Part shown: positions 7,246-56,615 of the stretch, one piece after another
Numbering within the stretch: position 1 is the first letter of the stretch
How the letters are laid out: every line of letters begins with the position of its first letter
Source: an uncultured Pseudomonadota bacterium
GTDB lineage: Bacteria > Pseudomonadota > Alphaproteobacteria > Rs-D84
Assembly: GCA_902802115.1 (NCBI GenBank)
Contig: CADCKW010000002.1
Coordinates: 69,744 to 133,743 of the forward strand
DNA: 64,000 bases
Direction of reading: 5' to 3'
Program-made: the position numbers and the translations under genes
Notes under the pieces: model-generated
What the model was told of the DNA's origin: nothing
The model's database searches: none
Seen by the model: only the letters and a program-made list of their open reading frames with translations

Positions 7246-7965
7246 TTATTCAGCGCCCTGTTCTACAATGCAATTTACAACCGTTTTATCCCCTGTGCGA
7301 ATTGTAAATTTATTATCATCGCATTTGTATAATTCCAATTTATCACCTTGGAAAGTTTGATTTATATATCTTATTTCAAATGCACTGATTGGATATTCTG
7401 CATTAAATTGATTAATAACATATTGCACATATGCGATGTTATTCGTGTGATGATAAAAATCAATCGCAGATGCCCCAATACAAACACTATATACCAATTC
7501 AATGGGTTCAAAATTCGCATTATGAAATTCAATATCTATTTCTGGGTTTTCTATTTCCAATGTTTCATCAACCCCCGCCGTATTTGCGCGACGAACACGA
7601 CCAGTTTGACAATCAATCGCACATAATTCGGCACGTGACGCAACCGCAATTTTATCATGACATTTTATTAAGGTATCAACAATTAACTTTACACCACCAG
7701 CATTTGTAATTGCACATTCAACAGTATATTCGTCCAACCAATGTATCGGCGAACGCATTTCAATCCGGTTTTTTGCAAATATCCACATTGCGTTATATTT
7801 TGGCACGCATGTTTCACCGTCTAAATTTAAATTACCCATCATTTCAGTAATGGCATCTTCGACAATTTGAAACGCACCAATAACAGATAAATTTGCCGAT
7901 GTATTGGTTAAACTGTATCCTAATTTGCCTTGCTTTATCAATTTCATTGTTAATCCCCCAAACAT
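7246..7965 (-). CDS. acyl-ACP thioesterase (double hotdog)
   Basis: 239 aa two-hotdog layout with HTNNIAYVQY, resembling the HVNN motif of acyl-ACP thioesterases. Confidence 0.6.
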   Translation of the reverse strand: MFGGLTMKLIKQGKLGYSLTNTSANLSVIGAFQIVEDAITEMMGNLNLDGETCVPKYNAMWIFAKNRIEMRSPIHWLDEYTVECAITNAGGVKLIVDTLIKCHDKIAVASRAELCAIDCQTGRVRRANTAGVDETLEIENPEIDIEFHNANFEPIELVYSVCIGASAIDFYHHTNNIAYVQYVINQFNAEYPISAFEIRYINQTFQGDKLELYKCDDNKFTIRTGDKTVVNCIVEQGAE

Positions 7966-33314: not shown

Positions 33315-33696
33315 ACAGAATATAACGGGAGTTATATTCGGGGCTGTCGAAAGCCTGGCTTACCCGGTGCAAAAAATTGTATCGTTATTCCGAATCGCTG
33401 GGATATTTTGTCCCATGAGTTTTTGATATAACATTTTCAGTTTTTTGCGCCGACATATATGAATATTTGTCGGCGTAATTTTTATGCGACAATTGTTTGT
33501 ATATAAAATCCAACTGATTTAAACCCTAAACCAATGTGTTGGTCAGGGTGCCGCATATACGAAAGATATGCGGAGTCACTTGGTATAGCTGATTTTCGAA
33601 CACCCCGACCGCTTCTCTCGTTAGCGGTATTTTTATTTTTTTGCATCGCAAAAAATAAAAATCACGCCACATACCAAAAACCAAAGGGGAGAACAA
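33315..33696 (+). promoter_or_regulatory. conserved leader (about 380 bp) of the variable secreted-protein family, copy A
   Basis: Aligns with the leaders of copies B (48326-48710, minus strand) and C (58902-59295). It begins ACAGAATA(C/T)AACGGGA.TT.T.TTCGGGG and ends with the AT-rich IR TTTTTATTTTTTTGC-ATC-GCAAAAAATAAAAA (about 33630-33662), 35 bp before the ATG. Confidence 0.6.
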
Positions 33697-34605
33697 ATGA
33701 AAAAGATATTATGCGCATTGTTGGGAATGTTGCTTGCCGGGACATCGTGGTCGGCCACCCTGCCCGCCGGTTATACACAACTTGAATATATTGAATCAAC
33801 AGGGGCACAGTATATTGATACAGGGATTTCTGGGTTTAACACTGGGGATTGGGAAATTTATGCCAAATGGATGACGACTGTTTCAACCCAACCGGCCAGT
33901 TATGGTTTCATTTTTGGTGTGTATACAGATGAATCGCACAATTCGTACAGGTTGATTTTTAATCAAACAAATTCTGGGAAGTATTTTATTAGCGCAAATT
34001 CAAGAGCTGGTGGTGGCAGTATAGCTGTTTCAGCAAGTACAAATGCGATTCATAACGTAGTGGTCAAAAATGGTTCTTTTGTATTAGATGGACAAAATTA
34101 TCAAGCACCTAATGCTGGAACAGCATTGCCGGCGGATTCTAAATTGGGAATATTTAGATGCGATGAAAATGGTTCATATGCGTCAAAAGGTGTCGCCAGA
34201 CTTTATTCTATGAGTGTGAAAAAAGATGGTGTTTTGATTGGTGATTTTGTTCCTGCAAAAAATTCGTCTGGCGTAATTGGTATGTATGATACGGTTGGTA
34301 ATCGTTTTTATACAAATCAGGGTACTGGGGAATTTATTGCCGGTCCAGAGGTTTCTATCCGCATTGCGACGACGGCGTATAACAGCGCGCGGTTTAGCCC
34401 AGTGGTGACTGAATTGAACGACACGATTGCAACGATACGAAATGTCGTGACGAACACTATTAACCAAACCAAAGCCATTGCGGATTTGCAGGCAACCAAA
34501 CAAACCCGCCCAGACGAGAACTGCCCCGCCGGTAAAAAATGCCTGCTGGTTGAAGACGATGCCGGCGTGCCGCATTGGTATGAGATTATCGAAAACGCAG
34601 ATTGA
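33697..34605 (+). CDS. variable secreted protein family, copy A (type-I N-terminus, conserved C-terminal module)
   Basis: Signal peptide MKKILCALLGMLLAGTSWSA; N-terminal TLPAGYTQLEYIESTGAQYIDTG shared with 51490 and 52307; C-terminal 90 aa (IRIATTAYNSARFSPVVTELNDTIATIRNVVTNTINQTKAIADLQATKQTRPDENCPAGKKCLLVEDDAGVPHWYEIIENAD) over 90% identical to copies B and C. Confidence 0.7.
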   Translation: MKKILCALLGMLLAGTSWSATLPAGYTQLEYIESTGAQYIDTGISGFNTGDWEIYAKWMTTVSTQPASYGFIFGVYTDESHNSYRLIFNQTNSGKYFISANSRAGGGSIAVSASTNAIHNVVVKNGSFVLDGQNYQAPNAGTALPADSKLGIFRCDENGSYASKGVARLYSMSVKKDGVLIGDFVPAKNSSGVIGMYDTVGNRFYTNQGTGEFIAGPEVSIRIATTAYNSARFSPVVTELNDTIATIRNVVTNTINQTKAIADLQATKQTRPDENCPAGKKCLLVEDDAGVPHWYEIIENAD

Positions 34606-34684
34606 CAGTTTTGATTTTGTTTGGTCAAGGCCCTGAATTCAACTCCCATTAAAAAAAGTAAGGCTGCCAGACAGAGTCAAGAAG

Positions 34685-34710
34685 CACCTGATGAAAATCA
34701 GGTGTTTTTT
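34685..34710 (+). terminator. family 3' hairpin terminator (CACCTGATGAAAATCAGGTG plus T-run)
   Basis: Perfect 8-bp stem plus T-run; an identical hairpin recurs at 34838-34865 and on the minus strand at 47421-47450. Confidence 0.6.
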
Positions 34711-34837
34711 GTTGGCCCCGAACAACTCGCTCGGTTCGCTGTCGCTTTCCTGCGCGGCACTCGTGACAAATCGCCTGACGGCTCTTTTACTCGTAGTCCC
34801 ATTAAAAAACAAGAGGCTTTTGTTTCTAAATCAAGAA

Positions 34838-34865
34838 ACACCTGATGAAAATCAGGTGTTTTTAT
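34838..34865 (+). terminator. second copy of the family 3' hairpin terminator
   Basis: ACACCTGATGAAAATCAGGTGTTTTT, preceded by a 45-bp stretch identical to the copy-B 3'UTR. Confidence 0.5.
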
Positions 34866-34937
34866 GTAAAAATAAATTTCCATTTATAAAAAATCCCCGG
34901 CAATGCCGGGGGATTATCGAGTATTGTTTTATATGCT

Positions 34938-35195
34938 TTATTTTATAACGGCGGATTTGATTAATGTGACATCTTCTTTGATGCCGTCTATTTTTAATTG
35001 CAATTGTCCCAGTCCGGTTTCCAATATTGTTGTGCGATTTTCCAATGCGGTAATGCGACTGTCGGCGCGTTCCAATTCCGCAACCGATGAATCTTGGCGT
35101 GCAACCCAATATACCGCACCAAATGCAAATGCCAGTAAAAACCAACTGTTTCGCAATATTTCCAATATATTCATAAAATCTGTTTTTTTTGGCAT
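34938..35195 (-). CDS. small membrane-anchored coiled-coil protein (phage-associated, function unknown)
   Basis: One TM helix then a heptad region; ends the portal-side phage-like block. Confidence 0.35.
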   Translation of the reverse strand: MPKKTDFMNILEILRNSWFLLAFAFGAVYWVARQDSSVAELERADSRITALENRTTILETGLGQLQLKIDGIKEDVTLIKSAVIK

Positions 35196-35198
35196 GAT

Positions 35199-35399
35199 TT
35201 AACTCCCTGCTTTGCCACGCGATATCATTTGTTCGATTTGTCGCACAAATGCCCGGTTCGATTCAGCCCAACGCAATTCGTTGTCTGTCGCGTTTGGTCC
35301 CAATGTGCGTTCCAATGTAATTTTACGCATGTGTTCCAATACCGCACGACCCGCAGGTGTCCCAAATGCACGCGCATATTGTTTTTCTATTTCTGTCAT
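35199..35399 (-). CDS. small phage-associated protein downstream of portal
   Basis: 66 aa, translationally coupled to the portal gene; its position matches the small conserved gene after the portal in GTA/HK97-type clusters. Confidence 0.4.
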   Translation of the reverse strand: MTEIEKQYARAFGTPAGRAVLEHMRKITLERTLGPNATDNELRWAESNRAFVRQIEQMISRGKAGS

Positions 35400-35409
35400 T
35401 TTTTATCCT

Positions 35410-36633
35410 TTATATTCCCATGTCACGCGTCGCAATCGCAATTGGTGCCAGATATTTTAATTCCGCATCACTGTGTAATGATATCGGTTCTATAACACCA
35501 CGACGCGATAAAATCTGTAATCCGCGTTCGCATAATGGACGTATGAATTCATGCAATACGCGACCATATGTCGCACCCAAAATACGCATCATGTCTGCAT
35601 TGCGTGCCAAAACCTCGGTCGCGGTCATTTCGCGTTCCGCCAACAAACTTAATCTGTCCGCCAATAATGTATGACGAATACGGTCGCGCAAATCGTTTAA
35701 TATCAATTGCGACACATCAAAATCGGCGCCACTGTGTAATGGTGTTAAACCAGAACTGCCCACCGCTTTTGGTATTATCGCCCCAGGTGTCAGATTGATG
35801 TTTTGCAAATTTATAACACCATCATCGTCGGCCTGCCATATACCACTGACGGCGATGGTCGCATTTTTCAAAACCAATTCTACAACTTTGTTCGCCGTTT
35901 TGATGTCTGGCAATGCACGCAAAATTGGACTGCGACCGTATAATTCGCCACTTTGCACAGACCAACGAAAGATTAAATACGGATTCGTTTCAAATGTACC
36001 TGTGGCGACGATATTGTTTTCAATGTCGCCACCAACGTCCAACCATGCAACAAATTCCTTATCAATCAATGATTGAATCATACGTATCGGGGTGTCTGGA
36101 TTTTTTTCAAATTTATTGCGCAAATTCGATGGCGCGTTCCATGTTGGATATCGCAATAAAACATCACCAAATGTTATTGTCGTGGTGTGAAAAATCGCGT
36201 TAGGTAAAATGGCTAAATCTGTGACGGGAATCGCAGTAAATGAAAACGCAGATGCCGCCCCAATTGGATTTTCCGCCATAAACATACATGCAGTACCATA
36301 TATACATAAATCCATATATGCCTGATGCACAGTCGTATAAAAATTTGAATCATTTAAATTTGCACGCAACGCAGTTGTTGCAATTTCTGGGTCTGGGGAC
36401 ATATCACTTTCACGCACCAAATTTATCCATAATGATTCAGGTGGTGTTAAAAGTGTGTATATCGATGCCGCTAAATTATCAACTGCATCGGCAGCGGTGC
36501 CATCAAACAATGTCGCCGTTTCATTATCTGCAATTGGAACAGTATAACGGCGCGCTTCGTCCCAACGGTGCAACCATGGTTCGCGCAATGTTATCGCTTT
36601 GTTATACATTTTGGTTAAGTTTTGAATATTCAT
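35410..36633 (-). CDS. phage portal protein (HK97/GTA-type)
   Basis: 407 aa, a typical size for GTA/HK97-type portals (inference); immediately downstream of the terminase nuclease-domain fragment in the GTA order terminase-portal. Confidence 0.55.
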   Translation of the reverse strand: MNIQNLTKMYNKAITLREPWLHRWDEARRYTVPIADNETATLFDGTAADAVDNLAASIYTLLTPPESLWINLVRESDMSPDPEIATTALRANLNDSNFYTTVHQAYMDLCIYGTACMFMAENPIGAASAFSFTAIPVTDLAILPNAIFHTTTITFGDVLLRYPTWNAPSNLRNKFEKNPDTPIRMIQSLIDKEFVAWLDVGGDIENNIVATGTFETNPYLIFRWSVQSGELYGRSPILRALPDIKTANKVVELVLKNATIAVSGIWQADDDGVINLQNINLTPGAIIPKAVGSSGLTPLHSGADFDVSQLILNDLRDRIRHTLLADRLSLLAEREMTATEVLARNADMMRILGATYGRVLHEFIRPLCERGLQILSRRGVIEPISLHSDAELKYLAPIAIATRDMGI

Positions 36634-36653
36634 TTTTATTCCTTTTTTTATTT

Positions 36654-37700
36654 TTATACTTTGAAATTTGTGTTCGCATTATATGTGCGACATGTTTGTC
36701 CCAATGGGCGTATCGGTGTCGGTGTTATATTTATCGCCCCAGATACCGCGTCCAAACCATCATCATGATAAGAACTGCCAATTGGTGACCAACCTAACAT
36801 TTCAGCCATAAATGGTGTTCGCGTTATTCGTGTGTGCGCAAACATACGCGCCGCCCCCAGTAATGGTTCAAATGTGTTTAAAATTCTTGTTTCTTTTTTT
36901 GTATTATTTGTGATTTTTTGGACATATATTCCGCCACCACGTGATGCAATTTTGTCACCTAATATTTCTGGCAACGCATTTCCCAGCCCATTTGTTTCAA
37001 CCGTCACACGATGCATGTTATATCGTTCCAAGAAATTCAATACTAAATCGCATTGGTATGTCAAAGGCTGGGGATGGTCAGGTGGTGTCACCATATATTG
37101 TATGTCGTGCAAAAATATCCTGTGTGTTTTATCGTCACGAAAAATCAGTGCAATAACACTGGAATCTGTTTTTTTGTGTCCCAATGACGGGTCCCAATAT
37201 ACAGATGCACCTGTGATTTTTTCTGTGCCGATTTGACCTGTTAAATTATTAAATTCTGTGTCATATATTTGTATCATGCCAGGGTCCAAACGGACACGTT
37301 CCAATGGCATGAATTCCAGCATCATTTGCGCCATAAAATGATGTTCGCCCACAGATTTCCTTAATTCATTTATTTTTTCTGGGGTAAAAACATCTGGCCA
37401 GGCAGAGTTTCCGGCACTGTCCAAAATCGGCAGAAAAAATTTTTGAAATCCTGATAAAAAAGGCGTTGAAAATTGAAATTTTTTATTTACTATAACAGAC
37501 ATGGACTTTACCCCTAAGACTTTACCGACAAATCTCGAAGCCGAACAGGCTGTGTTGGCGGCTGTGTTGATGAATAATCGCGCATTGGAACGCGTTTCCG
37601 ATTTTTTAAAACCTGAACATTTTTCACACCCAGCGCACCAAGAAATGTATCGTTTGGCATTGCGTAAGTTTTCCATAGCCGAAGAATTCGATATCATCAC
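36654..37700 (-). pseudogene. terminase large subunit, C-terminal nuclease-domain fragment
   Basis: RNase-H-like nuclease signature (VYWDPSLGHKKTDSSVIALIF...), no Walker ATPase region; the ORF's 5' end overlaps the dnaB start by about 200 nt. Confidence 0.55.
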
Positions 37701-39075
37701 AATTAAAAATTACCTGCAACAACAAGGCATTTTGGATTCTGTCGGCGGTATCGATTATTTGACCGAGTTGTCCCGCGCCGGCGCAACAGTTGTTAATGTC
37801 GAACAATACGGACGCATCGTTTATGAAAATGCTATGCGACGCCAGTTAATTGAACTGGGGCAATCCATTATTGACGATGCATATATCGAAGATTTGGATA
37901 AACCTGTGGCACGTCAATTAGAGGTCGCAGAACAAAAGTTGTTCGAAATGGCGTCCAGTGGTGTCGCAGAACACGAACCAACAACGATTGGAAATGCTTT
38001 GCAATCCGCATTGGAAGAAGCACAAATCGCGTACCAGGCAGATGGAACATTGTCTGGTTTGACAACAGGATTAACCGAATTGGACAAGTCTATTAGTGGT
38101 CTGCACCATTCCGATTTAATTATTATTGCGGGACGTCCCGCCATGGGTAAAACAACACTGGCAATGAATATCGCATTCAATGCGGCAAATGCAATATTAA
38201 CAGGACGCGCAAATTCACATTACAAAGGTGCGGTTGCATTTTTCTCGCTTGAAATGTCTGCGCCCCAGTTGGCGACACGTGTTTTGTCATCACAAACAAA
38301 AATTCCGGCGACATCTATGCGTGAAGGTTCGCTGACCGATGAAGAATTTTTGAAAATGACCCAATATTCCAAGGCTATTTCACAAACACCGTTGGTTATC
38401 GATGATACCGCCGGTATGTCTGTGCCAATGATTCGAACACGCGCACGCAGATTGGCACGCAAATACGGTGGAATCGCGTTGATTGTAATTGACTATTTAC
38501 AGTTGATGATGTCGCCTGGCGGAAAACGCAGCGAAAATCGCGTGCAAGAATTGTCTGAAATTACCCGCGGATTAAAAATGCTGGCCAAAGAATTAGATGT
38601 GCCGGTTATCGCCCTGTCCCAGTTGTCACGCAGTGTCGAAATGCGCGATGATAAACGACCACAATTGGCAGACTTGCGTGAATCTGGTTCTATTGAACAG
38701 GACGCCGATATTGTTATGTTCACATATCGTGAAGAATACTATTTGGATAATCGTGACCCGTCACAAAGAATTTCAACAACAACATCACAAAATAGTGTCG
38801 AAACATGGCAAAAACGTCTGGAACGCGCACGCGGCAAGGCAGATATTATCATCGGCAAAAACCGTCATGGCCGTCCAGAAACTGTGCATTTGGCTTTCTT
38901 GGGCGATTATTGTTTGTTCGATAATTTGGACGAAATGGCGGCGCGGACAATGGACGCACCTTTGCCGGGTGATTTTGGAACAAACACACAAAATAATGTT
39001 GATTCTGGGCCGGCACCAACAGATGATAATGCGGGTGTTGATGTTTCGGCAATTCCTGATGATATTGCACTGTAA
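37501..39075 (+). CDS. dnaB: replicative DNA helicase DnaB (with about 50 aa C-terminal extension)
   Basis: N-terminal primase-interaction region LPTNLEAEQAVLAAVLMNN, Walker A GRPAMGKTT, typical DnaB motifs. Confidence 0.85.
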   Translation: MDFTPKTLPTNLEAEQAVLAAVLMNNRALERVSDFLKPEHFSHPAHQEMYRLALRKFSIAEEFDIITIKNYLQQQGILDSVGGIDYLTELSRAGATVVNVEQYGRIVYENAMRRQLIELGQSIIDDAYIEDLDKPVARQLEVAEQKLFEMASSGVAEHEPTTIGNALQSALEEAQIAYQADGTLSGLTTGLTELDKSISGLHHSDLIIIAGRPAMGKTTLAMNIAFNAANAILTGRANSHYKGAVAFFSLEMSAPQLATRVLSSQTKIPATSMREGSLTDEEFLKMTQYSKAISQTPLVIDDTAGMSVPMIRTRARRLARKYGGIALIVIDYLQLMMSPGGKRSENRVQELSEITRGLKMLAKELDVPVIALSQLSRSVEMRDDKRPQLADLRESGSIEQDADIVMFTYREEYYLDNRDPSQRISTTTSQNSVETWQKRLERARGKADIIIGKNRHGRPETVHLAFLGDYCLFDNLDEMAARTMDAPLPGDFGTNTQNNVDSGPAPTDDNAGVDVSAIPDDIAL

Positions 39076-39153
39076 TTTTTAATGCAGATTTTACTTGCCA
39101 AATATTTAAAAATTGACTAGACTTTTGTCAAGTATTTAACAGGAGTACCAATC

Positions 39154-40161
39154 ATGGCCCAAGAAGAAATCATTTTTCCTAATAATATTAGAACTATCCG
39201 TTTGAATAACGGTATGAAGATGACGGAATTGGCACGCAGAACAGGATTAAGTCTGTCGGCGGTGTCCAAAATCGAAAAAGGCGTGCGTCGTTTAAACCAA
39301 AAACAGTTGCTGAATATATGCAATATTTTGGGTTGCAAACTCTCTGATATTTTCATCAAAGAATCCGATGCAGTTGCAGGTAAATGGCAAACAGAAATCA
39401 AACGCCGTTTAAATGATAATGAACATGGTGGTTTAAAGGTGTTTGGTTCGGGTCTGCGTAAAATCCGTCAAATCAAAGGAAAAACTATTGCCCAGGCGGC
39501 ACGCGATGCAGGTATGACTTTGTCTGTGTATCACAAAATCGAAATCGGCCAACGCGAAATTTATAAAAACGAAGTTGAACCTTTGGCTAAATCTTTTGCG
39601 ATGTCGGCAAATGAAATGTTTGATAAAATCGCAAATTTATATAAATCTGGCGAATTGACCAAACAAATCAACAAGGTCAAAGAACGCGTTAAATCTGTAT
39701 TGATTCCTGACAATCCTGTATCTGGGATTGATATGCACGACGGTTTGTATGGTGCAAAATTGTATGACAGTGCGCGTCGTAAATTGGTTCCGGTGTTTGG
39801 CTCACCTGCGGGCAAATCAATTTCTTTCAAGAAAAACGACAAAATTATGATTGTCGCACCAGCTTCATTGGAAGGTCGCAAATCTATTTATGCGGTTATA
39901 CCAAATTCAAAACGCAGTGGTGGATTTATTCCGGAAAAATCATATGTGTTCGTTGATGCGGCACAACCTGCAAATGTTGGCGATTTGGCATTGTGTATGA
40001 ATGCGGATTTTTCAAAGTTAAATCCTGATGATGTTGTTGATGCACATATTGCGGTGGTTCATAGTGATTCCAAGGGCAAAATGTATGGCGCATTGGTTGA
40101 TCCCCAAGAAAAAATCAGCGCAACAACTATGCACAAAGTCGTTTTGATTTTGACCGAATAA
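39154..40161 (+). CDS. XRE-family transcriptional regulator with two helix-turn-helix domains
   Basis: Two Cro/CI-type HTH repeats (IRTIRLNNGMKMTELARRTGLSLSAVSKIEKG and LRKIRQIKGKTIAQAARDAGMTLSVYHKIEIG) plus a C-terminal domain. Confidence 0.6.
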   Translation: MAQEEIIFPNNIRTIRLNNGMKMTELARRTGLSLSAVSKIEKGVRRLNQKQLLNICNILGCKLSDIFIKESDAVAGKWQTEIKRRLNDNEHGGLKVFGSGLRKIRQIKGKTIAQAARDAGMTLSVYHKIEIGQREIYKNEVEPLAKSFAMSANEMFDKIANLYKSGELTKQINKVKERVKSVLIPDNPVSGIDMHDGLYGAKLYDSARRKLVPVFGSPAGKSISFKKNDKIMIVAPASLEGRKSIYAVIPNSKRSGGFIPEKSYVFVDAAQPANVGDLALCMNADFSKLNPDDVVDAHIAVVHSDSKGKMYGALVDPQEKISATTMHKVVLILTE

Positions 40162-40181
40162 TTTTTATACGGAGAGAGAAT

Positions 40182-40841
40182 ATGAAACCAAAAGCAAATC
40201 TGGTCGCACAAAGATTGGTTAATCTGTATCGCCAAGAGCATGTTATATTGGGTGGCTGGGCCGCGTTAAATCCGGTATTTGTCCAAGAAGCCACAGACGA
40301 TGTTTTGGACGAAATGGCAGATTTGCCGACTGGTAAATTATTGGTTCAACATATTAAAAATCTGCGCAGTGGTAAAACACCAATGGATTCAATCGAACGC
40401 GATTTGTTGCCATACGGTGGTTTAATGGGCGAATCTGGTGTATCAACCCCAATGTCAAACGAACAATGGCACGAATTAAGTGATGCATTGAATAATTTTG
40501 TTCCAAACCAACAAGGTCTTGAAAATCTACAAAAATTAGATGTTGTAAAAAAATTCGGTGACGAGTGGTTGGTTGGAATTAAAAACATGCTGTCTGGGGA
40601 CACAGAATTGGCTGAAAAATGGAAGGTTGTTATGCAAACTTGGCGCGCATATCATTTGTGGGATATGGCAACCCAGATAATCAACCAACCATTAACAGAA
40701 CGTATGCGCGCACAAATCCAAGCCGATATGCCAGAATACGAAACTTTCTTGCCAATGTTTGCAGAACCCGGCAATCAGTTGTTGGCAAAATTGCGTTCTT
40801 TTATGAGTGATAAAAAACGCCCAAGTTCAACCGATAATTAA
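40182..40841 (+). CDS. hypothetical protein
   Basis: ORF track only; RBS GGAGAGAG upstream. Confidence 0.4.
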   Translation: MKPKANLVAQRLVNLYRQEHVILGGWAALNPVFVQEATDDVLDEMADLPTGKLLVQHIKNLRSGKTPMDSIERDLLPYGGLMGESGVSTPMSNEQWHELSDALNNFVPNQQGLENLQKLDVVKKFGDEWLVGIKNMLSGDTELAEKWKVVMQTWRAYHLWDMATQIINQPLTERMRAQIQADMPEYETFLPMFAEPGNQLLAKLRSFMSDKKRPSSTDN

Positions 40842-40843
40842 CA

Positions 40844-41455
40844 TTATTCGCCCTGCTCTGTATTTTCTGTGCGATATATTGTATCGGTGGTGTGTGGTGT
40901 GCCGATATATATTATTGTGCCATGGGGCGACAAAATAAAATCTAATTCACGCAGTCTTTCACGCAGTGCCTCGCGTTTTTGTGGGGTATTGCATGTATTT
41001 GGAACCTCTACGTCATCACATATTATTAAATCTGCACGCATACCTGTTATATTACCATGGATTCCTTGGCATACAACAGACGGTTCGCGAATACCAATTG
41101 GACGATTTATTGTTATTTTATCTGCCGACCATTCTTTTTTCGATTTTGGAATTAAATCTGTGCAAAACGGGTGGTTTTCCAATATATTTTTTATATGTGC
41201 CACCATGCGTGATGCCAATGCGGTGTGTGCAGATAAAACCAAAATTCTGGTTTCTGGGTGTAAATATAAAACACATGCCGCAAAAATTCCAACAACTGTT
41301 GATTTGCCAGAATGACGAAATGCCATCAGCAAACCTTTACGATTATTAGATTCCAATACACCAAATAAAAATTTTAACATTTCGTAATGATGATGCGGTG
41401 TTTGGTATCCTAAAATTTTGTTCCATTGGTCTGCAAATTGTAATACAGGATTCAT
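40844..41455 (-). pseudogene. terminase large subunit, N-terminal ATPase-domain fragment
   Basis: Walker A AFRHSGKSTV, Walker B ADLIICDDVE; ends where the plus-strand insert begins; same strand and order as the nuclease fragment at 36654-37700. Confidence 0.6.
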
Positions 41456-41460
41456 CGATT

Positions 41461-41808
41461 TTATCCAACAATTTTATTAACACGCGACAACCAAGATTTT
41501 AATAAATTTGGTTTTTTGGCGGATGTGGTGGCTATTTTTGCCAAATTAGAATTCTTTTTTTCATTATATGGTTCGGCAATTTCATCACGCAATCTATTTA
41601 ATACCGCGCCAGATGTGGTGCTGGACGCACTGACGCCGGATGCGCCATATTTTGCGCGTTGTGTTGCCAAGGCTTTTTTTATTAAATTTGTTTTTGCGCG
41701 TTCGTCTTTGGCAATTTGTTGTAAAATTTCTTGCCGTTTATTGTTTGATGATTTTTTGTTTTTTTGATAATTCAAAACATCTGTGACATCTGATACAAGT
41801 TGTCCCAT
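41461..41808 (-). CDS. small phage protein upstream of terminase (possible small terminase subunit)
   Basis: Basic, helical; start taken at ATG 41808 with AAGGAG RBS. Confidence 0.3.
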   Translation of the reverse strand: MGQLVSDVTDVLNYQKNKKSSNNKRQEILQQIAKDERAKTNLIKKALATQRAKYGASGVSASSTTSGAVLNRLRDEIAEPYNEKKNSNLAKIATTSAKKPNLLKSWLSRVNKIVG

Positions 41809-41824
41809 TTTAAACTCCTTTGGA

Positions 41825-43537
41825 TTAAATTTCATATTGTCCGTAAATTGTGACAGATAACACCGTAATTGGTTCAGGTTCATTACCACTGATTTGCCAT
41901 GGTGATATCGATACATCAATTTGCGAACCTAAAAAATTCATAGATATATCGCCAGAAAAACCACTGGACGACGCATCATAAATTTCGTTTGGTAATTCCA
42001 GGCGCATATTGTTTATAAATGCCCCTTTGGTTTCCACCAGCCGTAAATTGACTTTGCGTAATCTTAAATGTTTTGGTCTGTGTCCTGAAAAAGACAAAGG
42101 TAATCCAGATGCGCAAAATTCTATATCATGCGTTCCAGAATCTGTCAATGCGGTGCCAGAAAACTTTGCTAATTTATATGTGCCTGTGTTTTCCAATACA
42201 ACATACGTTGTGTTTCCTATGACCACAACAGATTTAAATTTTGCATACGAACTGTATCGCGACCATGCAGAAATACCCAAACCAACATTTTGATTTAATA
42301 CCGCCATGGTGCCATCTGCATTTACCAAATATAATTGTTTTAACTCTTTGTTATACGTAATATCCACAGGCGAATTTAACATATGTTTTGAAAACAAACA
42401 TAAATCATCAGCATTATACCTTTCGCCAAGTGTATCCAATGACAATTTGCGAATATCACGCAGTGTGCTGGATACAAACACTGTATCACCTTCGATTTTT
42501 TGTGGTGGTAAATTACATATGGTTGGGCTGCCAACGGTGGTGTGTTGAACTATATTCATACTGGACGGTGTGACCGGTTGATTTGCGATTGCCCATTCAC
42601 CCGCAGATGTTAAAACCTGTAATTTATCACTGCTGATTAAACTGCAAACTTGCTGGCGTTCTTTGGATAACAAAGTTGTTGAAATTGCCTCGTCATCTAA
42701 GCCAGAGCCCGCATCAAAATTATGATAATCACCAACATGCGACATCCATATTCCCCCAGGTGTTGCGCGTGTTCCACCAAAAACTAATCTGTCTTGGTGA
42801 AATGTGATTGCAATTGGCCAACCATGTTTATCATCAAATGCACTTTCCAACCAATCTGTCACAGGGGCAGCCGGCAAAGAATATTCAATTGTGCTGGTGG
42901 CATAAACGACTGTGGGACTTATATATTCTGTAATTTGCCAATTTTGGTTATTAAAACGCAATATTGTGCCAATATTATCGGGTGTCCAATAATTTTTAGA
43001 TGCAGTTAATATTGCAGATTGTACGCCATGAATTCCGGCTGTGACAGATATGTTGATACCATACATGTCATCATATTTCATAAATGGCATACGCGGATAT
43101 ACACCTGTGGTGTCGTAAAAATTAAATTTATCCAGAGTAAAATCATTTCCTGATTTTTTAAATACATACGGACAATAATCAGGTTGAACAAAAACCAACG
43201 AATCACTGAAACCGGCGCATTGTAAATGTGTAAGTGCAGATTCTGGCCATGGGGAACTTATTATTTTCAACAATGTATCATTTGAATATACGGATACTGT
43301 ATTATTTGAAAACACCAAAATATAATGTTCTGTATTTGAAATATCATATGAAAAAATACGCGAAAAACCTGGCAATATGGCGACATCAACCAAACCGGCG
43401 CGACGCGTTAATCCCCCACCAGACAATACGTCCATATTTTCCAAACGTGACAGACCATAAATATCTTTGTTCAAATAAAATTCTGGCGCAATTTCACCAT
43501 GCGCAAATGAATTTTGCGTGTGTATAAATTCTGTCAT
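41825..43537 (-). CDS. phage tail protein (possibly T7 gp12-like tail tubular protein B)
   Basis: 570 aa, beta-rich; segment ITFHQDRLVFGGT...NF resembles a recalled conserved gp12 motif (inference). Confidence 0.35.
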   Translation of the reverse strand: MTEFIHTQNSFAHGEIAPEFYLNKDIYGLSRLENMDVLSGGGLTRRAGLVDVAILPGFSRIFSYDISNTEHYILVFSNNTVSVYSNDTLLKIISSPWPESALTHLQCAGFSDSLVFVQPDYCPYVFKKSGNDFTLDKFNFYDTTGVYPRMPFMKYDDMYGINISVTAGIHGVQSAILTASKNYWTPDNIGTILRFNNQNWQITEYISPTVVYATSTIEYSLPAAPVTDWLESAFDDKHGWPIAITFHQDRLVFGGTRATPGGIWMSHVGDYHNFDAGSGLDDEAISTTLLSKERQQVCSLISSDKLQVLTSAGEWAIANQPVTPSSMNIVQHTTVGSPTICNLPPQKIEGDTVFVSSTLRDIRKLSLDTLGERYNADDLCLFSKHMLNSPVDITYNKELKQLYLVNADGTMAVLNQNVGLGISAWSRYSSYAKFKSVVVIGNTTYVVLENTGTYKLAKFSGTALTDSGTHDIEFCASGLPLSFSGHRPKHLRLRKVNLRLVETKGAFINNMRLELPNEIYDASSSGFSGDISMNFLGSQIDVSISPWQISGNEPEPITVLSVTIYGQYEI

Positions 43538-43559
43538 TTCATTTCCTTTTTTTAAATAT

Positions 43560-44078
43560 TTAAAATCGTGCGTCTATCAAAGAAAATTGCCTGACCCCGG
43601 TATTAATATCTGTGGTGGAATCAATAAATTTCGCGTTTTGATATTCTGCGTCGTATAAGTTAATTAATATCCGCAACATCTGTTGATTGCCGGTCAAAGG
43701 CACACAAAATTCTATTGCCAATTTTGTTGCCGCCAATGATACAAAATAACTGGGGAAAAATTCTGGTTCAACACGTTGCAAAGCCAATATTTTTACACTT
43801 TGTGATTTCGATATAATTTTATTACCAATAATATGTCCATCACAACGCAATATACGCAAAACATTTGATGGTATTATAAATTCATCATTTTCATTTTTTT
43901 CAATTTCAAAATTTTTTGATGCAAAATGCCAAGGGTGTGTTGATATCAACGAATCAATCGTTGTGTCGTATAATGTTCGCGCCAATTGCGCAGATGCGGT
44001 ATCTGCATTTATCGATGTTAATGGTTGTTCGCCTAATTTTAATAATGCCATAGAACATAAATCTTGTTTAGTGACCAT
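43560..44078 (-). CDS. phage structural protein (possibly gp11-like tail adaptor)
   Basis: 172 aa between the capsid and the large tail protein; by position only. Confidence 0.3.
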   Translation of the reverse strand: MVTKQDLCSMALLKLGEQPLTSINADTASAQLARTLYDTTIDSLISTHPWHFASKNFEIEKNENDEFIIPSNVLRILRCDGHIIGNKIISKSQSVKILALQRVEPEFFPSYFVSLAATKLAIEFCVPLTGNQQMLRILINLYDAEYQNAKFIDSTTDINTGVRQFSLIDARF

Positions 44079-44159
44079 ATTGAAATCCTTTATAAAAAAA
44101 TAAAAAAAAGGGGCGCAAACAATCGCGCCCCAAATGGTTGGATTATATATTATTTATTT

Positions 44160-44390
44160 TTAAGCCAACGCACCAACAGATACCGCCGATGCCGAAACAG
44201 TAATTTTCTTGATTGCTGTGCTGTCCGATGCATTGATAATGATAATATCGCCAGTATTCATCAATGTAATAACATTATTGAAATAACCACTGGTGCTAAT
44301 CGCCGTCATTGTTTCGTCTGCGACATAGTGCCACAAAGTGAAACCATTTGCATACGCAATCACAGATAATTTTTTATTTTGAAATGCCAT
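44160..44390 (-). CDS. small phage structural protein
   Basis: 76 aa ORF between capsid and tail genes. Confidence 0.25.
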   Translation of the reverse strand: MAFQNKKLSVIAYANGFTLWHYVADETMTAISTSGYFNNVITLMNTGDIIIINASDSTAIKKITVSASAVSVGALA

Positions 44391-44428
44391 CTGTTTTTCC
44401 TTTTGGTTGTTTTGTTAAAGCGTTAAAT

Positions 44429-45253
44429 TTATGCATTATCTTTGCATTTGACACGAACGATACCGTCTTGGTCAATCAATACGGCACCTTGGGACATGCT
44501 GTTGCTGATAAAGTGCGCTGCACGATCACCATGCCAAGAAATATCTGTTTTGACCTCTTGACCACATGCATGACCGATACTGGACGCATGATATATAAAG
44601 CAACTGCGTTGTGTTGTGCTGGCAAGTGGCAAATCATTGTGCAAAATCCATGTAATGCCCATCCATTTGCGAGCCTCGTATCCGTTTATCATTGGATATG
44701 AATCACCAACATAATCAGCAGATACAAATTCATTTATGCCCAATAATTCGTTCCATTGATGCACACCAACCACAGCAAATCTGCGACCGTCATCAGGAAC
44801 ATCTTTTTCATTTAATTTTTCAATGGCTTCCAAAATCAATGATTTGGTTAAACCTGTTGAAAAATCTCCAACATACGCAGTGGCATTATCCATGGCGCTA
44901 ATAATCAATTCATCAGTTTTACGACCCAATGCATATGCACCCGCAGATGCAACAACACGACGTTCATCGACATTGGTTTTTAATTCGTCCAAAGAATCGA
45001 CCCAATCACCTGCATAATAATCTTGCAAAACACATTCCACAGGTTGATGATTCAAATTCATAACTGGGACAATACCATGTCTGGATTTTGTGCTGGCGGT
45101 GCCACGACCGATTGTTTGAAAAGTGGTTGATTGTCCAACAACACCGGTTTTGCTGCGAACGGTTGGACGCAATTTTGTGCCCATTTGCTGATATGCAAGA
45201 TGAACATCTGCTTCGAATTGTTTCACAAAAACTTGATCTATGGAAACAGACAT
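44429..45253 (-). CDS. phage major capsid protein (podovirus/T7 gp10-like)
   Basis: 274 aa; C-terminal FIYHASSIGHACG...AHFISNSMSQGAVLID resembles T7 gp10 FMHRSAVGTVK...AKYAMGHGG; follows a scaffold-like gene. Confidence 0.45.
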   Translation of the reverse strand: MSVSIDQVFVKQFEADVHLAYQQMGTKLRPTVRSKTGVVGQSTTFQTIGRGTASTKSRHGIVPVMNLNHQPVECVLQDYYAGDWVDSLDELKTNVDERRVVASAGAYALGRKTDELIISAMDNATAYVGDFSTGLTKSLILEAIEKLNEKDVPDDGRRFAVVGVHQWNELLGINEFVSADYVGDSYPMINGYEARKWMGITWILHNDLPLASTTQRSCFIYHASSIGHACGQEVKTDISWHGDRAAHFISNSMSQGAVLIDQDGIVRVKCKDNA

Positions 45254-45395
45254 ATTTATTCCTTTTTGTTAAAAATTAAATTCATGTGCAAAAATGCACG
45301 ACAATAAAAAAAGATTTTGTTTTTTTGATTATGCAAATGAAATATTTGCGTCATATAACAAAAATGCGGGGTCAAACGGTGATTATCCTGCAACA

Positions 45396-45430
45396 GTTTT
45401 AGTTAGACTTTTTTTCATCTAACTAAAATT
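45396..45430. promoter_or_regulatory. 11-bp perfect inverted repeat in the capsid-gene upstream region
   Basis: TTTTAGTTAGA-N10-TCTAACTAAAA between the histone-like gene terminator and the capsid start. Confidence 0.35.
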
Positions 45431-45439
45431 ATTACAAAA

Positions 45440-45466
45440 AAACCGCAACGAATTGCGGTTTTTTTA
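45440..45466. terminator. bidirectional terminator hairpin
   Basis: AAAAAAACCGCAACGAATTGCGGTTTTTTT. Confidence 0.55.
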
Positions 45467-45485
45467 AATCACTTTAAAAGAAAAA

Positions 45486-45842
45486 TTATTTTCTTTTAGC
45501 AGCTGGTTTTTTGCATGCGCATTTTTTTGCCGCTGGTTTTGCAGCAACTTTTTTTGCAACAGGCTTTTTAGCAGCAACTTTTTTCACAGCGACTTTTTTA
45601 GCAGCTGGTTTTTTCGCAGCAACTTTTTTAGCCGCTGGTTTTTTTGCAGCAACTTTTTTCACTGCTGGTTTTTTCGCAGCAACTTTTTTTACAGCTGGTT
45701 TTTTTGCAGCAACTTTTTTCACTGCTGTTTTTTTTGCAGCTGGCTTTTTAGCAGCAGCTGGTTTTTTAGCGGCAACTTTTTTTGCAGCAGGTTTTGCAGC
45801 TGCAGGTTTTGTTGCTTTCTTTGCCAAGAATGAAAATGCCAT
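45486..45842 (-). CDS. histone H1-like Lys/Ala-repeat DNA-binding protein
   Basis: 118 aa of (AAKKPA/VKKV) repeats, resembling Hc1/BpH1/AlgP-type proteins; encoded by about 30-bp tandem DNA repeats. Confidence 0.6.
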   Translation of the reverse strand: MAFSFLAKKATKPAAAKPAAKKVAAKKPAAAKKPAAKKTAVKKVAAKKPAVKKVAAKKPAVKKVAAKKPAAKKVAAKKPAAKKVAVKKVAAKKPVAKKVAAKPAAKKCACKKPAAKRK

Positions 45843-45969
45843 TCTTCTCTCCTTTTTATGTTTTGGTTAGAACAAAACTTTTTTTGTTCTTGATTCTATT
45901 TTAACTTAAACAAAAAAAATAGTAAAGAAGAATTTGATTTTTTATGAAATGTTTTTTCATTTTTTTATT

Positions 45970-46626
45970 TTATGAATACAATTTTTTAAAACCATTTTCA
46001 ATTTTTCTAACATATTCTGGATCTGCATCTCGCCAATATTTTGGGTCACGCATCATGCGTCGCAATTCATCATCTGTTAAATTTTCTGTCGCACCATTTT
46101 CCATTTCAACACGTGGTTCCATTGATTGCATCATTTGATATATGCCTTGGATTCCCTGGGCGCTGGCGCACAAAGATTCAAATGCATCATGTGGTAAAAA
46201 TTTTTCACCAAATGTATTTATCGCATTTAATGCATCGTTCATTTTTTCTTTGCCACCAAAAAATTTTTCCAATTTTAAAATTTCATTTGTTTCATTTTTT
46301 GCACTCATCAATTCATTTATCACAGGTGATAAAAATTTTTCTGCCAAACCATAAATTTGTTCAACTTGATTTTTTGTTAATCCAATATCATGAAATTTTT
46401 GTTTAATCGATTCGTCATCGAACAACGCATTTGATGGATAATCATTTGCATTTTCTGGCACACCAATTGCACGATTAAATTTTTCACGCGTGGCATCATC
46501 GGCATTATCATTTGGCACAGATACCATCGTTCCAATTTTCTTTTCCAATTCTGTATATGATTTTACCAACGCATCAACATTAACCGAACCGTCAGTGTTT
46601 TGAAATTTTTCTGGGATTTTTTGCAT
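45970..46626 (-). CDS. phage scaffolding/capsid-assembly-like protein
   Basis: Acidic helical protein directly upstream of the capsid; start at MQKIPEKF (46626) with AAGGA RBS. Confidence 0.4.
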   Translation of the reverse strand: MQKIPEKFQNTDGSVNVDALVKSYTELEKKIGTMVSVPNDNADDATREKFNRAIGVPENANDYPSNALFDDESIKQKFHDIGLTKNQVEQIYGLAEKFLSPVINELMSAKNETNEILKLEKFFGGKEKMNDALNAINTFGEKFLPHDAFESLCASAQGIQGIYQMMQSMEPRVEMENGATENLTDDELRRMMRDPKYWRDADPEYVRKIENGFKKLYS

Positions 46627-46822
46627 TGTTATTCCTTTTTGTTTCTGTTGATTTGCGCAGAAAATAAATTCCGCCAAGTGTAAATATCGATTGCAGTGTT
46701 ATAAACAAATCTGTATCACCAACCAAATAAGATGCGACGGCAGACAAAATTCCCACAGATGATATTATATATGTTCTGTGTCCTGCCAATGCGCCACCGC
46801 GAATAATTTTTTGCATTTTCAT
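46592..46822 (-). CDS. small two-TM protein (holin-like)
   Basis: 76 aa, two hydrophobic helices, basic C-terminus; adjacent to the cell-wall hydrolase. Confidence 0.3.
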   Translation of the reverse strand: MKMQKIIRGGALAGHRTYIISSVGILSAVASYLVGDTDLFITLQSIFTLGGIYFLRKSTETKRNNNAKNPRKISKH

Positions 46823-46835
46823 TTTTTATATTCCG

Positions 46836-47246
46836 TTATCGATAGAAAAACAAACCGTCCATTTCCAAAATATAACCACGTGCGATTGACCATGATGGAT
46901 TAAATTCATTGCGATGAAATTTGGTTGCACCAAAACAACAATCTGGTAAATTGTTTTTTAACATTCTGTCGCAGACACGCAAACACATTTGAAATGCTTT
47001 GGCATTTGGATTTACATTTAATAAATCATGATGCGTTGATTTTTTATCCAGACTTTCAAATAATCCAGACTGTGTAATAAAATCAGTTGGTGAAATTCCA
47101 TTAACACGCGCACCATTTGCAATCATCGAAGCCAAGGCTTCAACAACACGCAGTGATTGCCCACATGTTTCTGCATATATTACACGTGCAATTTTATAAA
47201 CATCGCGTGCAAAATCGTTTTGATGTTTAATCAGTGTTAATTGCAT
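46836..47246 (-). CDS. SleB-type cell wall hydrolase
   Basis: IARVIYAETCGQS...VEALASMIANGAR matches the Hydrolase_2/SleB family common in alphaproteobacterial phage and GTA clusters. Confidence 0.6.
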   Translation of the reverse strand: MQLTLIKHQNDFARDVYKIARVIYAETCGQSLRVVEALASMIANGARVNGISPTDFITQSGLFESLDKKSTHHDLLNVNPNAKAFQMCLRVCDRMLKNNLPDCCFGATKFHRNEFNPSWSIARGYILEMDGLFFYR

Positions 47247-47420
47247 TGTGGTATCCTTTGGTTAAAATAAAAAAGGCCACGAAAAATCGTGACCAAAAAA
47301 TATGAGTAAAAAAAATCACGCCAAATGTGACGCGTATAATTTCTGCTCTTGATGGTTTGTATTATATCACAAATCGAGTTGCAAGTCAAGAATATTTCAA
47401 AATACATCGGTGCATTATAA

Positions 47421-47450
47421 AAAAACACCTGATTTTCATCAGGTGTTTCT
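47421..47450 (-). terminator. family 3' hairpin terminator (copy B)
   Basis: Reverse complement AACACCTGATGAAAATCAGGTGTTTTTTT, identical to the stems at 34685 and 34838. Confidence 0.6.
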
Positions 47451-47518
47451 TGATTTAGAAACAAAAGCCTCTTGTTTTTTAATGGGAGTTGAATTCGGGG
47501 CTTTCTAAATCAAAACTG

Positions 47519-48325: not shown

Positions 48326-48710
48326 GTTTTCTCCCCTTTTGGTTTTTTGGTATGTGACGTGATTTTTATTTTTTGCAATGCAAAAAATAAAAATACCGCT
48401 AACGAGAGAAGCGGTCGGGGTGTTAGAAAAATCAAAATACTACAATGATCCCGCATATATTGCCATATGCAGCCACCCCGCCACAAAAACCAGCGAGGAT
48501 TTACAAATCATTGGGAATATAATTCACATAATATGACACAAAAAAATTTTGCATCGATGCGAATTAATATCGATGCAAAACCAATTTCCGTTATAACAAT
48601 ACAAGAAACACGATTAACGAATCGTTTTCTGTTTTGGGATAACGATGCAGGTCTTGCATCGGTAGTATTTTGGGCTTTTCTAGGGCCCCGAAAACAATTC
48701 CCGTTGTTTT
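48326..48710 (-). promoter_or_regulatory. conserved family leader, copy B
   Basis: Reverse complement aligns with leaders A and C, including the AT-rich IR about 35 bp upstream of the ATG. Confidence 0.6.
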
Positions 48711-52927: not shown

Positions 52928-53050
52928 AACAAAAAAAAGATAAAAATTTATTTATTATTTTTTCAAATTTTGAACTGATGTTCTTATTTTCACTTGACCG
53001 GGTTTGTTGGATTTTTTTATACTGAAATCGTATGAATTGGGGGAAAGATT

Positions 53051-53197
53051 ATGAAGAAAATTTTACTCGGTTTTTTCGTTGCTTTGGTACTGGCTGGTTG
53101 TGGTCAGGTTTATGATCGCGAACCGGTTGGTGTTGGTTTTGACAATAACGAATTAAAATTGTCGCCATGCGCATGTATCATGGTGTATCAGGCATAA
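53051..53197 (+). CDS. small lipoprotein (48 aa), VirB7-like by position
   Basis: Not in the ORF track (under 60 aa). MKKILLGFFVALVLAGC lipobox, GGGAAAG RBS, TTGACC-N18-TATACT promoter; directly upstream of a VirB8-like gene. Confidence 0.45.
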   Translation: MKKILLGFFVALVLAGCGQVYDREPVGVGFDNNELKLSPCACIMVYQA

Positions 53198-53220
53198 ATT
53201 AAAACATACGGGGGCAATAT

Positions 53221-54572: not shown

Positions 54573-54581
54573 AGGTTTAAT

Positions 54582-55415: not shown

Positions 55416-55417
55416 AC

Positions 55418-56585: not shown

Positions 56586-56615
56586 ATCAACCTGCCATGT
56601 ATAAATTATTGTATA

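Follow-up and report, generated by a model that had tools for sequence, protein, structure and literature searches.

In a 64,000-nucleotide (nt) window of contig CADCKW010000002.1, from an uncultured alphaproteobacterium, we describe a phage-derived element in which the gene for the large terminase subunit (terL) is kept as two separate genes, TerL-N and TerL-C, with a cellular dnaB gene nested between them on the opposite strand. These are its distinguishing features, and a literature search found no published description of a split terminase or of a dnaB nested in a phage or gene transfer agent (GTA) cluster. We consider it reasonably probable that the element is the domesticated, GTA-like remnant of a podovirus, that its terminase comes in two pieces and that the host dnaB inside it is probably essential. 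Judging from the flank and the selection described below, it is inherited vertically among uncultured Alphaproteobacteria of gut, rumen and termites, which form a large clade. The split architecture, its conservation and the selection acting on it are robust, and the two-subunit motor, the leaderless dnaB mRNA and the antisense read-through switch belong to a proposed mechanistic reading of them. The principal features, with positions counted in the window and protein lengths in amino acids (aa), are as follows.

34937..47391, minus strand: whole phage-derived element, about 12.45 kilobases (kb), a minus-strand late operon plus a plus-strand module
40844..41455, minus strand: TerL-N, 203 aa, ATPase core with Walker A, Walker B, catalytic Glu and motif III
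36654..37502, minus strand: TerL-C, 282 aa, rest of the ATPase domain and RNase-H-like nuclease
37501..39075, plus strand: dnaB, full length with DnaB and DnaB_C domains, cellular alphaproteobacterial type
39154..40161, plus strand: XRE regulator, 335 aa, two HTH_3 domains and a C-terminal domain of about 150 aa without assigned family
40182..40841, plus strand: hyp219, 219 aa, clade-restricted, last gene of the embedded operon

Two halves of one large terminase

A sequence-only reading of this DNA had taken the two minus-strand fragments, in the right order and orientation, as halves of one terminase gene, and complementary family matches bear this out. In a profile search against the PHROG 38 terminase, TerL-N covers positions 283-459 and TerL-C positions 483-710. 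The NCBIfam model NF033889 (T7-type TerL, 500 positions) is matched by TerL-N with 237 bits over positions 4-195, against a cutoff of 150, and by TerL-C with 101 bits over positions 232-500, alone below that cutoff; the model is covered by the two polypeptides jointly and by neither singly. The open reading frame (ORF) 36654-37700 matches the Pfam family Terminase-T7_RNaseH-like. Alignment with an intact homolog (P0019, 487 aa) pairs its residues 9-202 with TerL-N and 202-455 with TerL-C, and because of these ranges the two pieces are contiguous without overlap. We conclude from this homology that TerL-N and TerL-C are adjoining halves of a single ancestral T7-type large terminase. One correction concerns the end of the C-terminal fragment, which had been placed at 37700. 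The conserved gene starts at the ATG at 37502 and not at the GTG at 37700, since relatives conserve the 282-aa form, which is also the one called in them; the 198 nt of 37503-37700 are dnaB coding sequence read on the opposite strand.

Both halves have kept their catalytic sites. In the alignment the Walker A and Walker B motifs, the catalytic Glu, motif III and the acidic nuclease residues are all retained, and K51, D147, D148, E150, T186-P187-H188, D307, E372, D450, D451 and D454 are invariant with respect to 47 intact homologs. When TerL-N and TerL-C were joined in silico, a complete-terminase fold was predicted, with a predicted local distance difference test (pLDDT) score of 91.1 and a predicted template modelling (pTM) score of 0.84, and the sole low-confidence stretch, at about residues 198-215, is the junction. 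The best structural match of the joined model is the T7-like terminase 8dgc. This entry holds the PhiV-1 terminase in complex with the Avs3 defence sensor, and splitting of TerL might conceivably affect its recognition by Avs3-type sensors.

The site of the break is a loop whose length varies among intact TerLs, directly past the motif III strand GTPHTxDTIY. The match of the N fragment to the T7-type chains 8dgc and 4bij stops at about residue 217-219 (residues 19-219 of the T7-like terminase in the PDB), and TerL-N itself ends in DTIYRT followed by a short tail that varies among relatives. Homology with intact TerLs reaches to 8 residues before the TerL-N stop and resumes at about residue 11 of TerL-C, at an FSTPFL motif. 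An intein or split intein at the break could be ruled out: it needs blocks of about 100 aa before the break and about 35 aa after it, and there is no space for it because TerL homology runs almost to the break on both sides. Neither a second terminase nor a second dnaB was found within the 64-kb window.

The ratio of nonsynonymous to synonymous substitution rates (dN/dS) was estimated pairwise by the Nei-Gojobori method between the window and five loci of relatives (L092, L093, L001, L003 and L004), at dS of about 0.6-1.9. It was 0.06-0.09 for TerL-N and 0.09-0.15 for TerL-C, compared with 0.04-0.07 for the capsid protein, 0.07 for the portal, 0.05-0.09 for DnaB, 0.055-0.08 for BamA, 0.09-0.10 for hyp219 and 0.11-0.30 for p115, a small protein encoded next to TerL-N. 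TerL-N and TerL-C are under purifying selection comparable to that on DnaB and BamA. The lengths of the two ORFs are also steady, with an N half of 197-214 aa and a C half of 281-283 aa in 16/16 loci. Capsid identity over the clade is 80-95%, with dN/dS of 0.04-0.12, and in distant members the capsid protein is better conserved (80-84%) than DnaB (71-79%).

The embedded module and its conservation in relatives

The opposite-strand module has the composition first read from the sequence: dnaB, an XRE regulator with two HTH_3 domains and a 219-aa gene without a family match. DnaB is full length with a C-terminal extension, as had been proposed, both of its domains being matched. Its scores lie above the cutoffs of the alphaproteobacterial equivalog NF006606 (599 bits, cutoff 540) and of TIGR00665 (498 bits, cutoff 385) and below that of the phage_DnaB model TIGR03600 (412 bits, cutoff 499); it also matches PHROG 19. 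The extension (38920-39072) consists of a variable linker of 35-45 aa and a conserved acidic tip, (D/S)AIPDD(M/I)(P/A)L in 14/16 clade members, with IPDDFE and IPDEFE as the ends in L013 and L014. The tail does not align with the DnaBs of the sister lineage, whose matches stop at about residue 476-489. The acidic tip is reminiscent of the acidic tails by which SSB or T7 gp4 bind their partners. Outside the clade the nearest dnaB genes (48-51% identity) belong to other gut Alphaproteobacteria, and at the one sister-lineage locus examined, L021, dnaB has ordinary cellular neighbours such as rpmB. Taken together, the embedded dnaB most likely encodes the cell's replicative helicase, and it is likely to be the only dnaB of the genome.

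The XRE regulator is 70-93% identical over the main clade, and its PDB profile matches span the first HTH only. By eye its C-terminal domain looked like the LexA/S24 type, and this was rejected: Pfam gave no Peptidase_S24 match, and hhalign against the repressors of L006 and L008 gave 1% probability. For hyp219 there is no Pfam, PHROG or NCBIfam match. It has 1088 homolog clusters, all of about 215-235 aa, and its profile found only 59 family representatives in a library of 1.84 billion proteins, none with extra domains. Its AlphaFold model is all-helical (pLDDT 79.5) and has no PDB match with E < 1.

The split is a constant feature of the relatives. When the joined halves were searched against 5.8 billion proteins, the 18 best TerL matches (69-76% identity) were all standalone and covered the C half only (twelve clusters of 282 aa, five of 267 aa and one of 270 aa), and intact TerLs of about 490 aa appeared only at 38-46% identity. 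The split architecture is found in all relatives examined, at about 25 loci from genomes and metagenomes. The order on the minus strand is the same in relatives as in the window: p136, a small membrane protein, scaffold, basic repeat protein, capsid, p76, p172, tail, p115 and TerL-N, after which come hyp219, XRE and DnaB on the opposite strand and then TerL-C, portal, Bbp19 and p85. This gene order is identical in L001-L005, L009-L015, L017, L019, L025, L092 and L093. An uninterrupted terminase does exist in more distant relatives (L006-L008 and L173), but not among the closest ones, which are all split (matches of 69-76%).

More than 120 DnaB clusters share 72-99% identity with the embedded one, and the five that were looked up are all embedded (P0160, P0144 and P0240 at 73-78%; P0122 and P0123 at 90-92%). 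In a scan of dnaB neighbourhoods with one genome per GTDB species, in which 80 loci were listed, terminase pieces adjoin dnaB in every locus with a dnaB of at least 68% identity, among them metagenome-assembled genomes (MAGs) from deer, yak and termite gut, and in no locus with a dnaB of 51% identity or less. A single-protein scan of IMG/VR found at least 174 relatives, and among the best 80 loci, which were inspected, 59 hold both halves with the module between them and 19 hold the N half followed by hyp219 up to the contig end; the other two are an intact TerL at 52% identity and a divergent variant (L172). The lplA-side flank is common to L003-L005 and L009-L011. The element has the gene content looked for in a GTA, a structural, packaging and lysis cluster without integration or replication-initiation genes of its own, and it likewise combines vertical inheritance with purifying selection (loci with dnaB of at least 68% identity, the lplA flank, and dN/dS of 0.04-0.15).

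Three variants depart from this pattern. In the decayed L018 (636-5629) there is no portal gene any more, and what remains of the capsid gene, an N-terminal fragment, adjoins a truncated TerL-N; its XRE regulator is 50% identical, and its dnaB is intact though inverted. In L172 (IMGVR_UViG_2820136564_000001, 4731-13855) a dnaB of 58% identity again lies between TerL-N and TerL-C, in a differing gene order. The place of XRE and hyp219 is taken there by a Cys-rich protein of 834 aa whose N-terminus looks like a signal peptide, and pilin-like and ParA-like genes stand between TerL-C and the portal. The 834-aa gene was considered as a counterpart of hyp219 or XRE and is unrelated to both. Because L172 shares the nesting of dnaB without XRE and hyp219, the association of dnaB with terL predates the rest of the module. 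The third is L016, a termite-gut MAG locus (177-4783), in which recG lies between TerL-C and dnaB.

The junctions between the halves and the module are equally constant. The ATG codons of dnaB and TerL-C overlap back to back as CATG (37500-37503) in 14/16 loci; in L019 and L025 there is a 19-nt spacer instead. At the other edge only 2 nt separate the stops of hyp219 and TerL-N, and in most loci the two stops meet within a few nt. Target-site duplications or integrase remnants had been envisaged at these junctions. No integrase remnant was found at either of them and a repeat scan gave no direct repeats at the module edges, but the DTIY[RK]T end of TerL-N resembles the [D/N]IVY[KE][KN] start of TerL-C over about 6 codons (about 11/18 nt), possibly a short duplication and the sole candidate for an insertion scar.

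Transcription signals and readings of the element

The transcription signals found by scanning are these.

37466..37493, plus strand: predicted dnaB promoter, TTGAAA, 16 nt, TACTAT
47361..47389, minus strand: late-operon promoter, TTGACT, 17 nt, TG-extended TATAAT
47275..47334, minus strand: tandem leader terminators, hairpin and T-tract in two copies before the first late gene
44110..44131, minus strand: strong internal terminator after capsid and p76, 9-pair stem with 7 G-C pairs, T8
34895..34911, minus strand: strong terminator at the element end, 7 G-C pairs and a T-tract

The putative dnaB promoter sits in codons 3-12 of TerL-C, 7 nt 5' of the dnaB ATG, so that the layout within TerL-C codons 1-14 is AAAAAAGGCG-TTGAAA-16 nt-TACTAT-7 nt-ATG. 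Its sequence AAAAAAGGCGTTGAAA is unchanged in 16/16 loci, as are the first 16 nt of the AAAAAAGGCG-TTGAAA stretch, and TACTAT is found in 14/16 (TACCAT in L019 and L025). Third-codon-position entropy in TerL-C codons 1-15 is 0.28-0.57, compared with a gene mean of 1.35, and dnaB codons 1-10 show only a mild dip in synonymous variation. The conserved stretch is probably a sigma-70 promoter of dnaB, and because TACTAT is only 7 nt from the ATG a leaderless dnaB mRNA is predicted. Back-to-back overlapping starts with a promoter inside coding sequence would make this an extreme example of dual coding. For TerL-C there is a Shine-Dalgarno-like GGRG 8 nt upstream, within dnaB codons 4-5, and space for a promoter is absent; no conserved -10 or -35 of a minus-strand TerL-C promoter was found in the dnaB 5' region among the loci compared.

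The late promoter is the best match of the region in the scan, with 11/12 positions and the upstream TG, and CTTGACTT...TGTGATATAAT is kept in all 14 loci compared, as is the short leader CATNAANAG that follows it. The two leader terminators (scan matches at 47334..47317 and 47294..47275) are likewise present in 14/14 loci with differing stem sequences, so it is their structure and not their sequence that is conserved. The internal and end terminators have counterparts in L009 (16649..16628 and 7440..7414 respectively). The terminator scan found no strong minus-strand terminator inside the module. Since a near-consensus promoter precedes two terminators and further internal ones, we infer that the late operon needs a processive antiterminator, for which hyp219 is a candidate by its position. 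Work on the Caulobacter GTA has demonstrated processive antitermination via GafYZ (PMC11150451), and the mechanism has been proposed for Bartonella BrrG and other alphaproteobacterial GTAs (bioRxiv 10.1101/2024.11.20.624540).

From these data the following history may be proposed. The element stems from a podovirus whose head genes were of T7/BPP-1 type. A stretch of DNA with dnaB would have been inserted in terL in the clade's ancestor, in the variable surface loop after motif III, and both terL pieces would then have persisted as separate genes. The terminase would thereby be made as a RecA-type ATPase core of 203 aa and a second polypeptide of 282 aa with the rest of the ATPase and the nuclease, and the two would reassemble non-covalently into a working packaging motor. 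dnaB would be transcribed from the promoter inside the first 14 codons of TerL-C. Late transcription of the endolysin, holin-like, scaffold, capsid, tail and TerL-N genes would start at the near-consensus promoter and be antiterminated, and TerL-C, the portal and the downstream genes would be reached only by polymerase passing antisense through hyp219, XRE and dnaB. Such read-through is suggested because promoter space for TerL-C is absent and the module holds no strong minus-strand terminator. Particle production and the expression of dnaB and XRE would be mutually antagonistic as a result, and an essential gene would be locked inside the element. Perhaps the nesting is even a working switch, in which head-on late transcription shuts down the helicase and the regulator, constitutive dnaB transcription silences portal and nuclease, the two-subunit motor is obligate and the element cannot be deleted; we put this forward tentatively, as a possibility that is more doubtful than probable.

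Several points weigh against this account. We infer the antisense read-through solely from the absent promoter space and terminators. No antiterminator was found, and the fold of hyp219 matches none of the Q-type proteins (lambda Q, Q21, BrrG). The ATPase and nuclease domains of T4 gp17 are each active separately and mixing them is not known to restore packaging, and a two-piece terminase is for this reason not guaranteed to function. TerL-C is the least conserved packaging gene, with 48-54% identity in distant members. The element, at about 12.5 kb, could fit its own head, whereas a GTA packages essentially random host DNA in particles too small for its whole cluster. A second dnaB may lie elsewhere in the genome; that each of the nine clade assemblies occurs once among the 80 loci listed is weak, negative evidence against it.

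A first alternative is that the element was domesticated for something other than DNA transfer, such as particles for killing, signalling or cargo, or that the halves took on separate new roles as a lone nuclease and a lone ATPase. The strong selection on capsid, portal and tail says that particles matter and leaves their contents unspecified; TerL-C evolves faster than TerL-N, and the head module holds a Lys/Ala-rich repeat protein. Against this, portal, scaffold and both halves with intact ATPase and nuclease sites make up a minimal DNA-packaging set that has been retained together, and the joined model is a canonical TerL. We regard such a role as rather unlikely.

The element could also be an active temperate phage or integrative element with its own phage DnaB and CI-like repressor, in which case the host dnaB would lie elsewhere and nothing essential would be embedded. 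DnaB-like helicases are frequent in phages (hence the PHROG 19 match), an opposite-strand module with an XRE regulator looks like a lysogeny and replication module, such contigs are classed as viral by IMG/VR and by one NCBI record, and the location of the element in the window differs from that in its closest relative. However, an integrase, att-like direct repeats, a primase and a replication initiator are all absent from the element, and the lplA-side flank is shared over deep divergence. DnaB behaves as cellular in passing its equivalog and missing the phage cutoff, the embedded dnaBs are the only ones found in the clade, with no assembly giving a second match, and in L018 dnaB has outlasted the decayed phage genes. 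Placing the module inside terL would also be a strange arrangement for a functional phage. This alternative we judge decidedly unlikely.

The sequence-only reading had favoured a resident prophage or GTA in which an insertion or a genome rearrangement knocked out the terminase, the halves being pseudogene debris in which only dnaB functions. The gene is indeed physically interrupted, and L018 is truly decayed, with its capsid fragment, truncated TerL-N and missing portal. However, dN/dS is 0.06-0.15 for both halves at dS of about 1 or more, as low as for DnaB and BamA; ORF lengths are constant in 16/16 loci, the catalytic residues are all kept and the joined fold is complete, for which reasons inactivation is unsupported. 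Nor is the rest debris, since the endolysin, holin-like, scaffold, capsid, tail and portal genes are complete and highly conserved, equally or better than the halves. The split is ancient, with a junction conserved to the nucleotide over a deep clade and an architecture kept while DnaB diverged to about 70% identity, which does not fit a recent rearrangement. What stands of the idea of an essential dnaB in phage debris is the helicase, probably the replicative one by its NF006606 match, its presence in every clade member and its retention in L018. An inactivated terminase is on this evidence very improbable. Equally hard to credit is a programmed rearrangement in which the 3.4-kb module is excised in particle-producing cells and an intact terL rebuilt, the converse of the phage regulatory switches that split host genes: there is a short imperfect duplication at both module edges, but these repeats are too short and diverged to recombine, there is no recombinase gene in or beside the element, each half has its own conserved start or stop codon, with a Shine-Dalgarno-like sequence for TerL-C, and the TerL-N tail past DTIYRT is variable.

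If the domesticated, GTA-like reading is correct and the terminase functional, the break inside the ATPase domain marks a split that viral packaging motors tolerate, and a natural two-piece terminase would be a ready system for studies of domain communication. An essential replicative helicase gene would have been fixed in a phage-derived element throughout the history of a large clade. The nesting suggests a route to undeletable elements, or to hosts that couple replication with particle production. Rumen and gut Alphaproteobacteria carry the element widely, and GTAs are barely known in such communities.

Related systems and remaining features

The element resembles RcGTA of Rhodobacter capsulatus and CcGTA of Caulobacter crescentus in being a compact head, tail, packaging and lysis cluster of about 12-15 kb, without integration or replication genes of its own and with vertical inheritance under purifying selection. 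Like CcGTA, which is expressed via processive antitermination (PMC11150451), it has internal terminators. RcGTA and CcGTA are siphovirus-like with an intact TerL, whereas here the portal, terminase, scaffold and tail are of T7/BPP-1 type and terL is split; an essential-type host gene lies inside, no GafA or GafYZ homolog was recognised, and the element is known from its genes alone. BaGTA of Bartonella is also a domesticated phage cluster and has a Q21-like processive antiterminator, which acts at a promoter whose attenuating leader contains a -10-like element (bioRxiv 10.1101/2024.11.20.624540). Both clusters are functionally linked to DNA replication, but in BaGTA, with its run-off replication, the link is a phage-derived origin module elsewhere and here it would be the cell's dnaB inside terL; BaGTA also has an intact terminase and another phage ancestry. 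FpGTA of Faecalibacterium, a GTA candidate, shares a gut host and a podovirus-like character, and its operon of about 10.5 kb encodes a TerS-like protein, TerL, portal, scaffold and capsid (PMC12946183). It differs in its Firmicutes host, its intact TerL and the lack of an embedded host gene, and there is experimental evidence for its packaging (PMC12946183), whereas the present element is known from sequence.

The closest intact counterparts, L006-L008 and L173 from other Alphaproteobacteria, have a homologous TerL (N half 52-54% and C half 37-43% identical), with portal, Bbp19, scaffold, capsid (62%), tail and a Hydrolase_2 endolysin. They are likewise about 11-12 kb, flanked by host genes and without integrase. 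Unlike the element, they have a one-gene TerL of 487-493 aa, a circularly permuted gene order and, in place of the XRE335/hyp219/dnaB module, a small S24-type repressor at the edge. In L006 (7807-19649) and L008 (1511-12572) we noted an S24-type repressor, endolysin, GTA-type holin and head and tail genes. Elements of this type, which to our knowledge are themselves uncharacterised, may form a wider undescribed family of podovirus-like GTA-type elements. Interrupted phage terminases and phage regulatory switches also have a gene that foreign DNA breaks but that still functions. Inteins and introns in terminase genes are spliced out to leave one polypeptide, and regulatory switches that split host genes excise by a recombinase; the insert here is a three-gene opposite-strand operon, without a recombinase.

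The other genes of the element are as follows.

46836..47246, minus strand: p136, SleB/Hydrolase_2-type endolysin homolog by BLASTP
46592..46822, minus strand: 76-aa protein with two hydrophobic, apparently membrane-spanning stretches, from direct reading of the sequence
45970..46626, minus strand: scaffold/capsid-assembly protein, 218 aa, orthologs with PF05396 Phage_T7_Capsid
45486..45842, minus strand: Lys/Ala-rich repeat protein, 118 aa, KKPAAKK-type repeats, between scaffold and capsid
44429..45253, minus strand: major capsid protein, 274 aa, orthologs with PF19821 Phage_capsid_2
41825..43537, minus strand: tail protein, 570 aa, PHROG 376 (E 3.7e-79)
41461..41808, minus strand: p115, small conserved protein directly 5' of TerL-N
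35410..36633, minus strand: portal protein, 407 aa, PF12236 Head-tail_con (E 2.6e-77)
35199..35399, minus strand: Bbp19-like small phage protein, PF25181 (E 1.1e-9)
34938..35195, minus strand: p85, last gene of the element, an apparent membrane-spanning segment and then a heptad-like stretch

Alone, p136 has no Pfam match; the endolysin assignment comes from BLASTP against the Hydrolase_2 genes of L006 and L008, two elements with an intact TerL (E 7e-13 and 4e-13). The 76-aa protein, whose slot holds an ORF of 64-82 aa in most relatives, appears holin-like from its position after the endolysin. The gene of the Lys/Ala-rich protein is made of about 22 copies of a 15-nt tandem repeat (repeat family D1); most relatives have an ORF of 81-119 aa in this slot, on the opposite strand in L009, and the product may be a DNA-condensing internal head protein. 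Orthologs of p115 are 115-117 aa long in all loci, and its position makes it a small-terminase candidate. p85 is 67-93% identical across relatives.

The limits of the element, 34937 and 47391, are synteny breakpoints with respect to the closest relative, L092. In L092 the whole element with its promoter stands at the opposite end of a host block of 5.8 kb (L092:1616-7446, corresponding to window 52987-58837), and the element has therefore moved as one unit. An Rfam scan of the window found three tRNAs only, none of them near the element. Public pipelines label the region as viral, as in the DnaB cluster P0177 ("Caudoviricetes sp.") and the at least 174 IMG/VR contigs, and the cell's dnaB has therefore been entered in databases as a phage gene.

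Inverted repeats of about 1.2 kb bracket the element (33593-34869 and 47415-48430), with arms that include 261 nt at 88% and 73 nt at 97% complementarity. Each arm carries a paralogous gene, of 302 aa (33697-34605, plus strand) and 268 aa (47519-48325, minus strand), and the 302-aa product has a signal-peptide-like start. Inside these flanking repeats a palindromic hairpin, AAACACCTGATTTTCATCAGGTGTTT, occurs three times (34682-34707, 34836-34861 and 47423-47448), its copies differing by 0-1 mismatch where none would be expected by chance.

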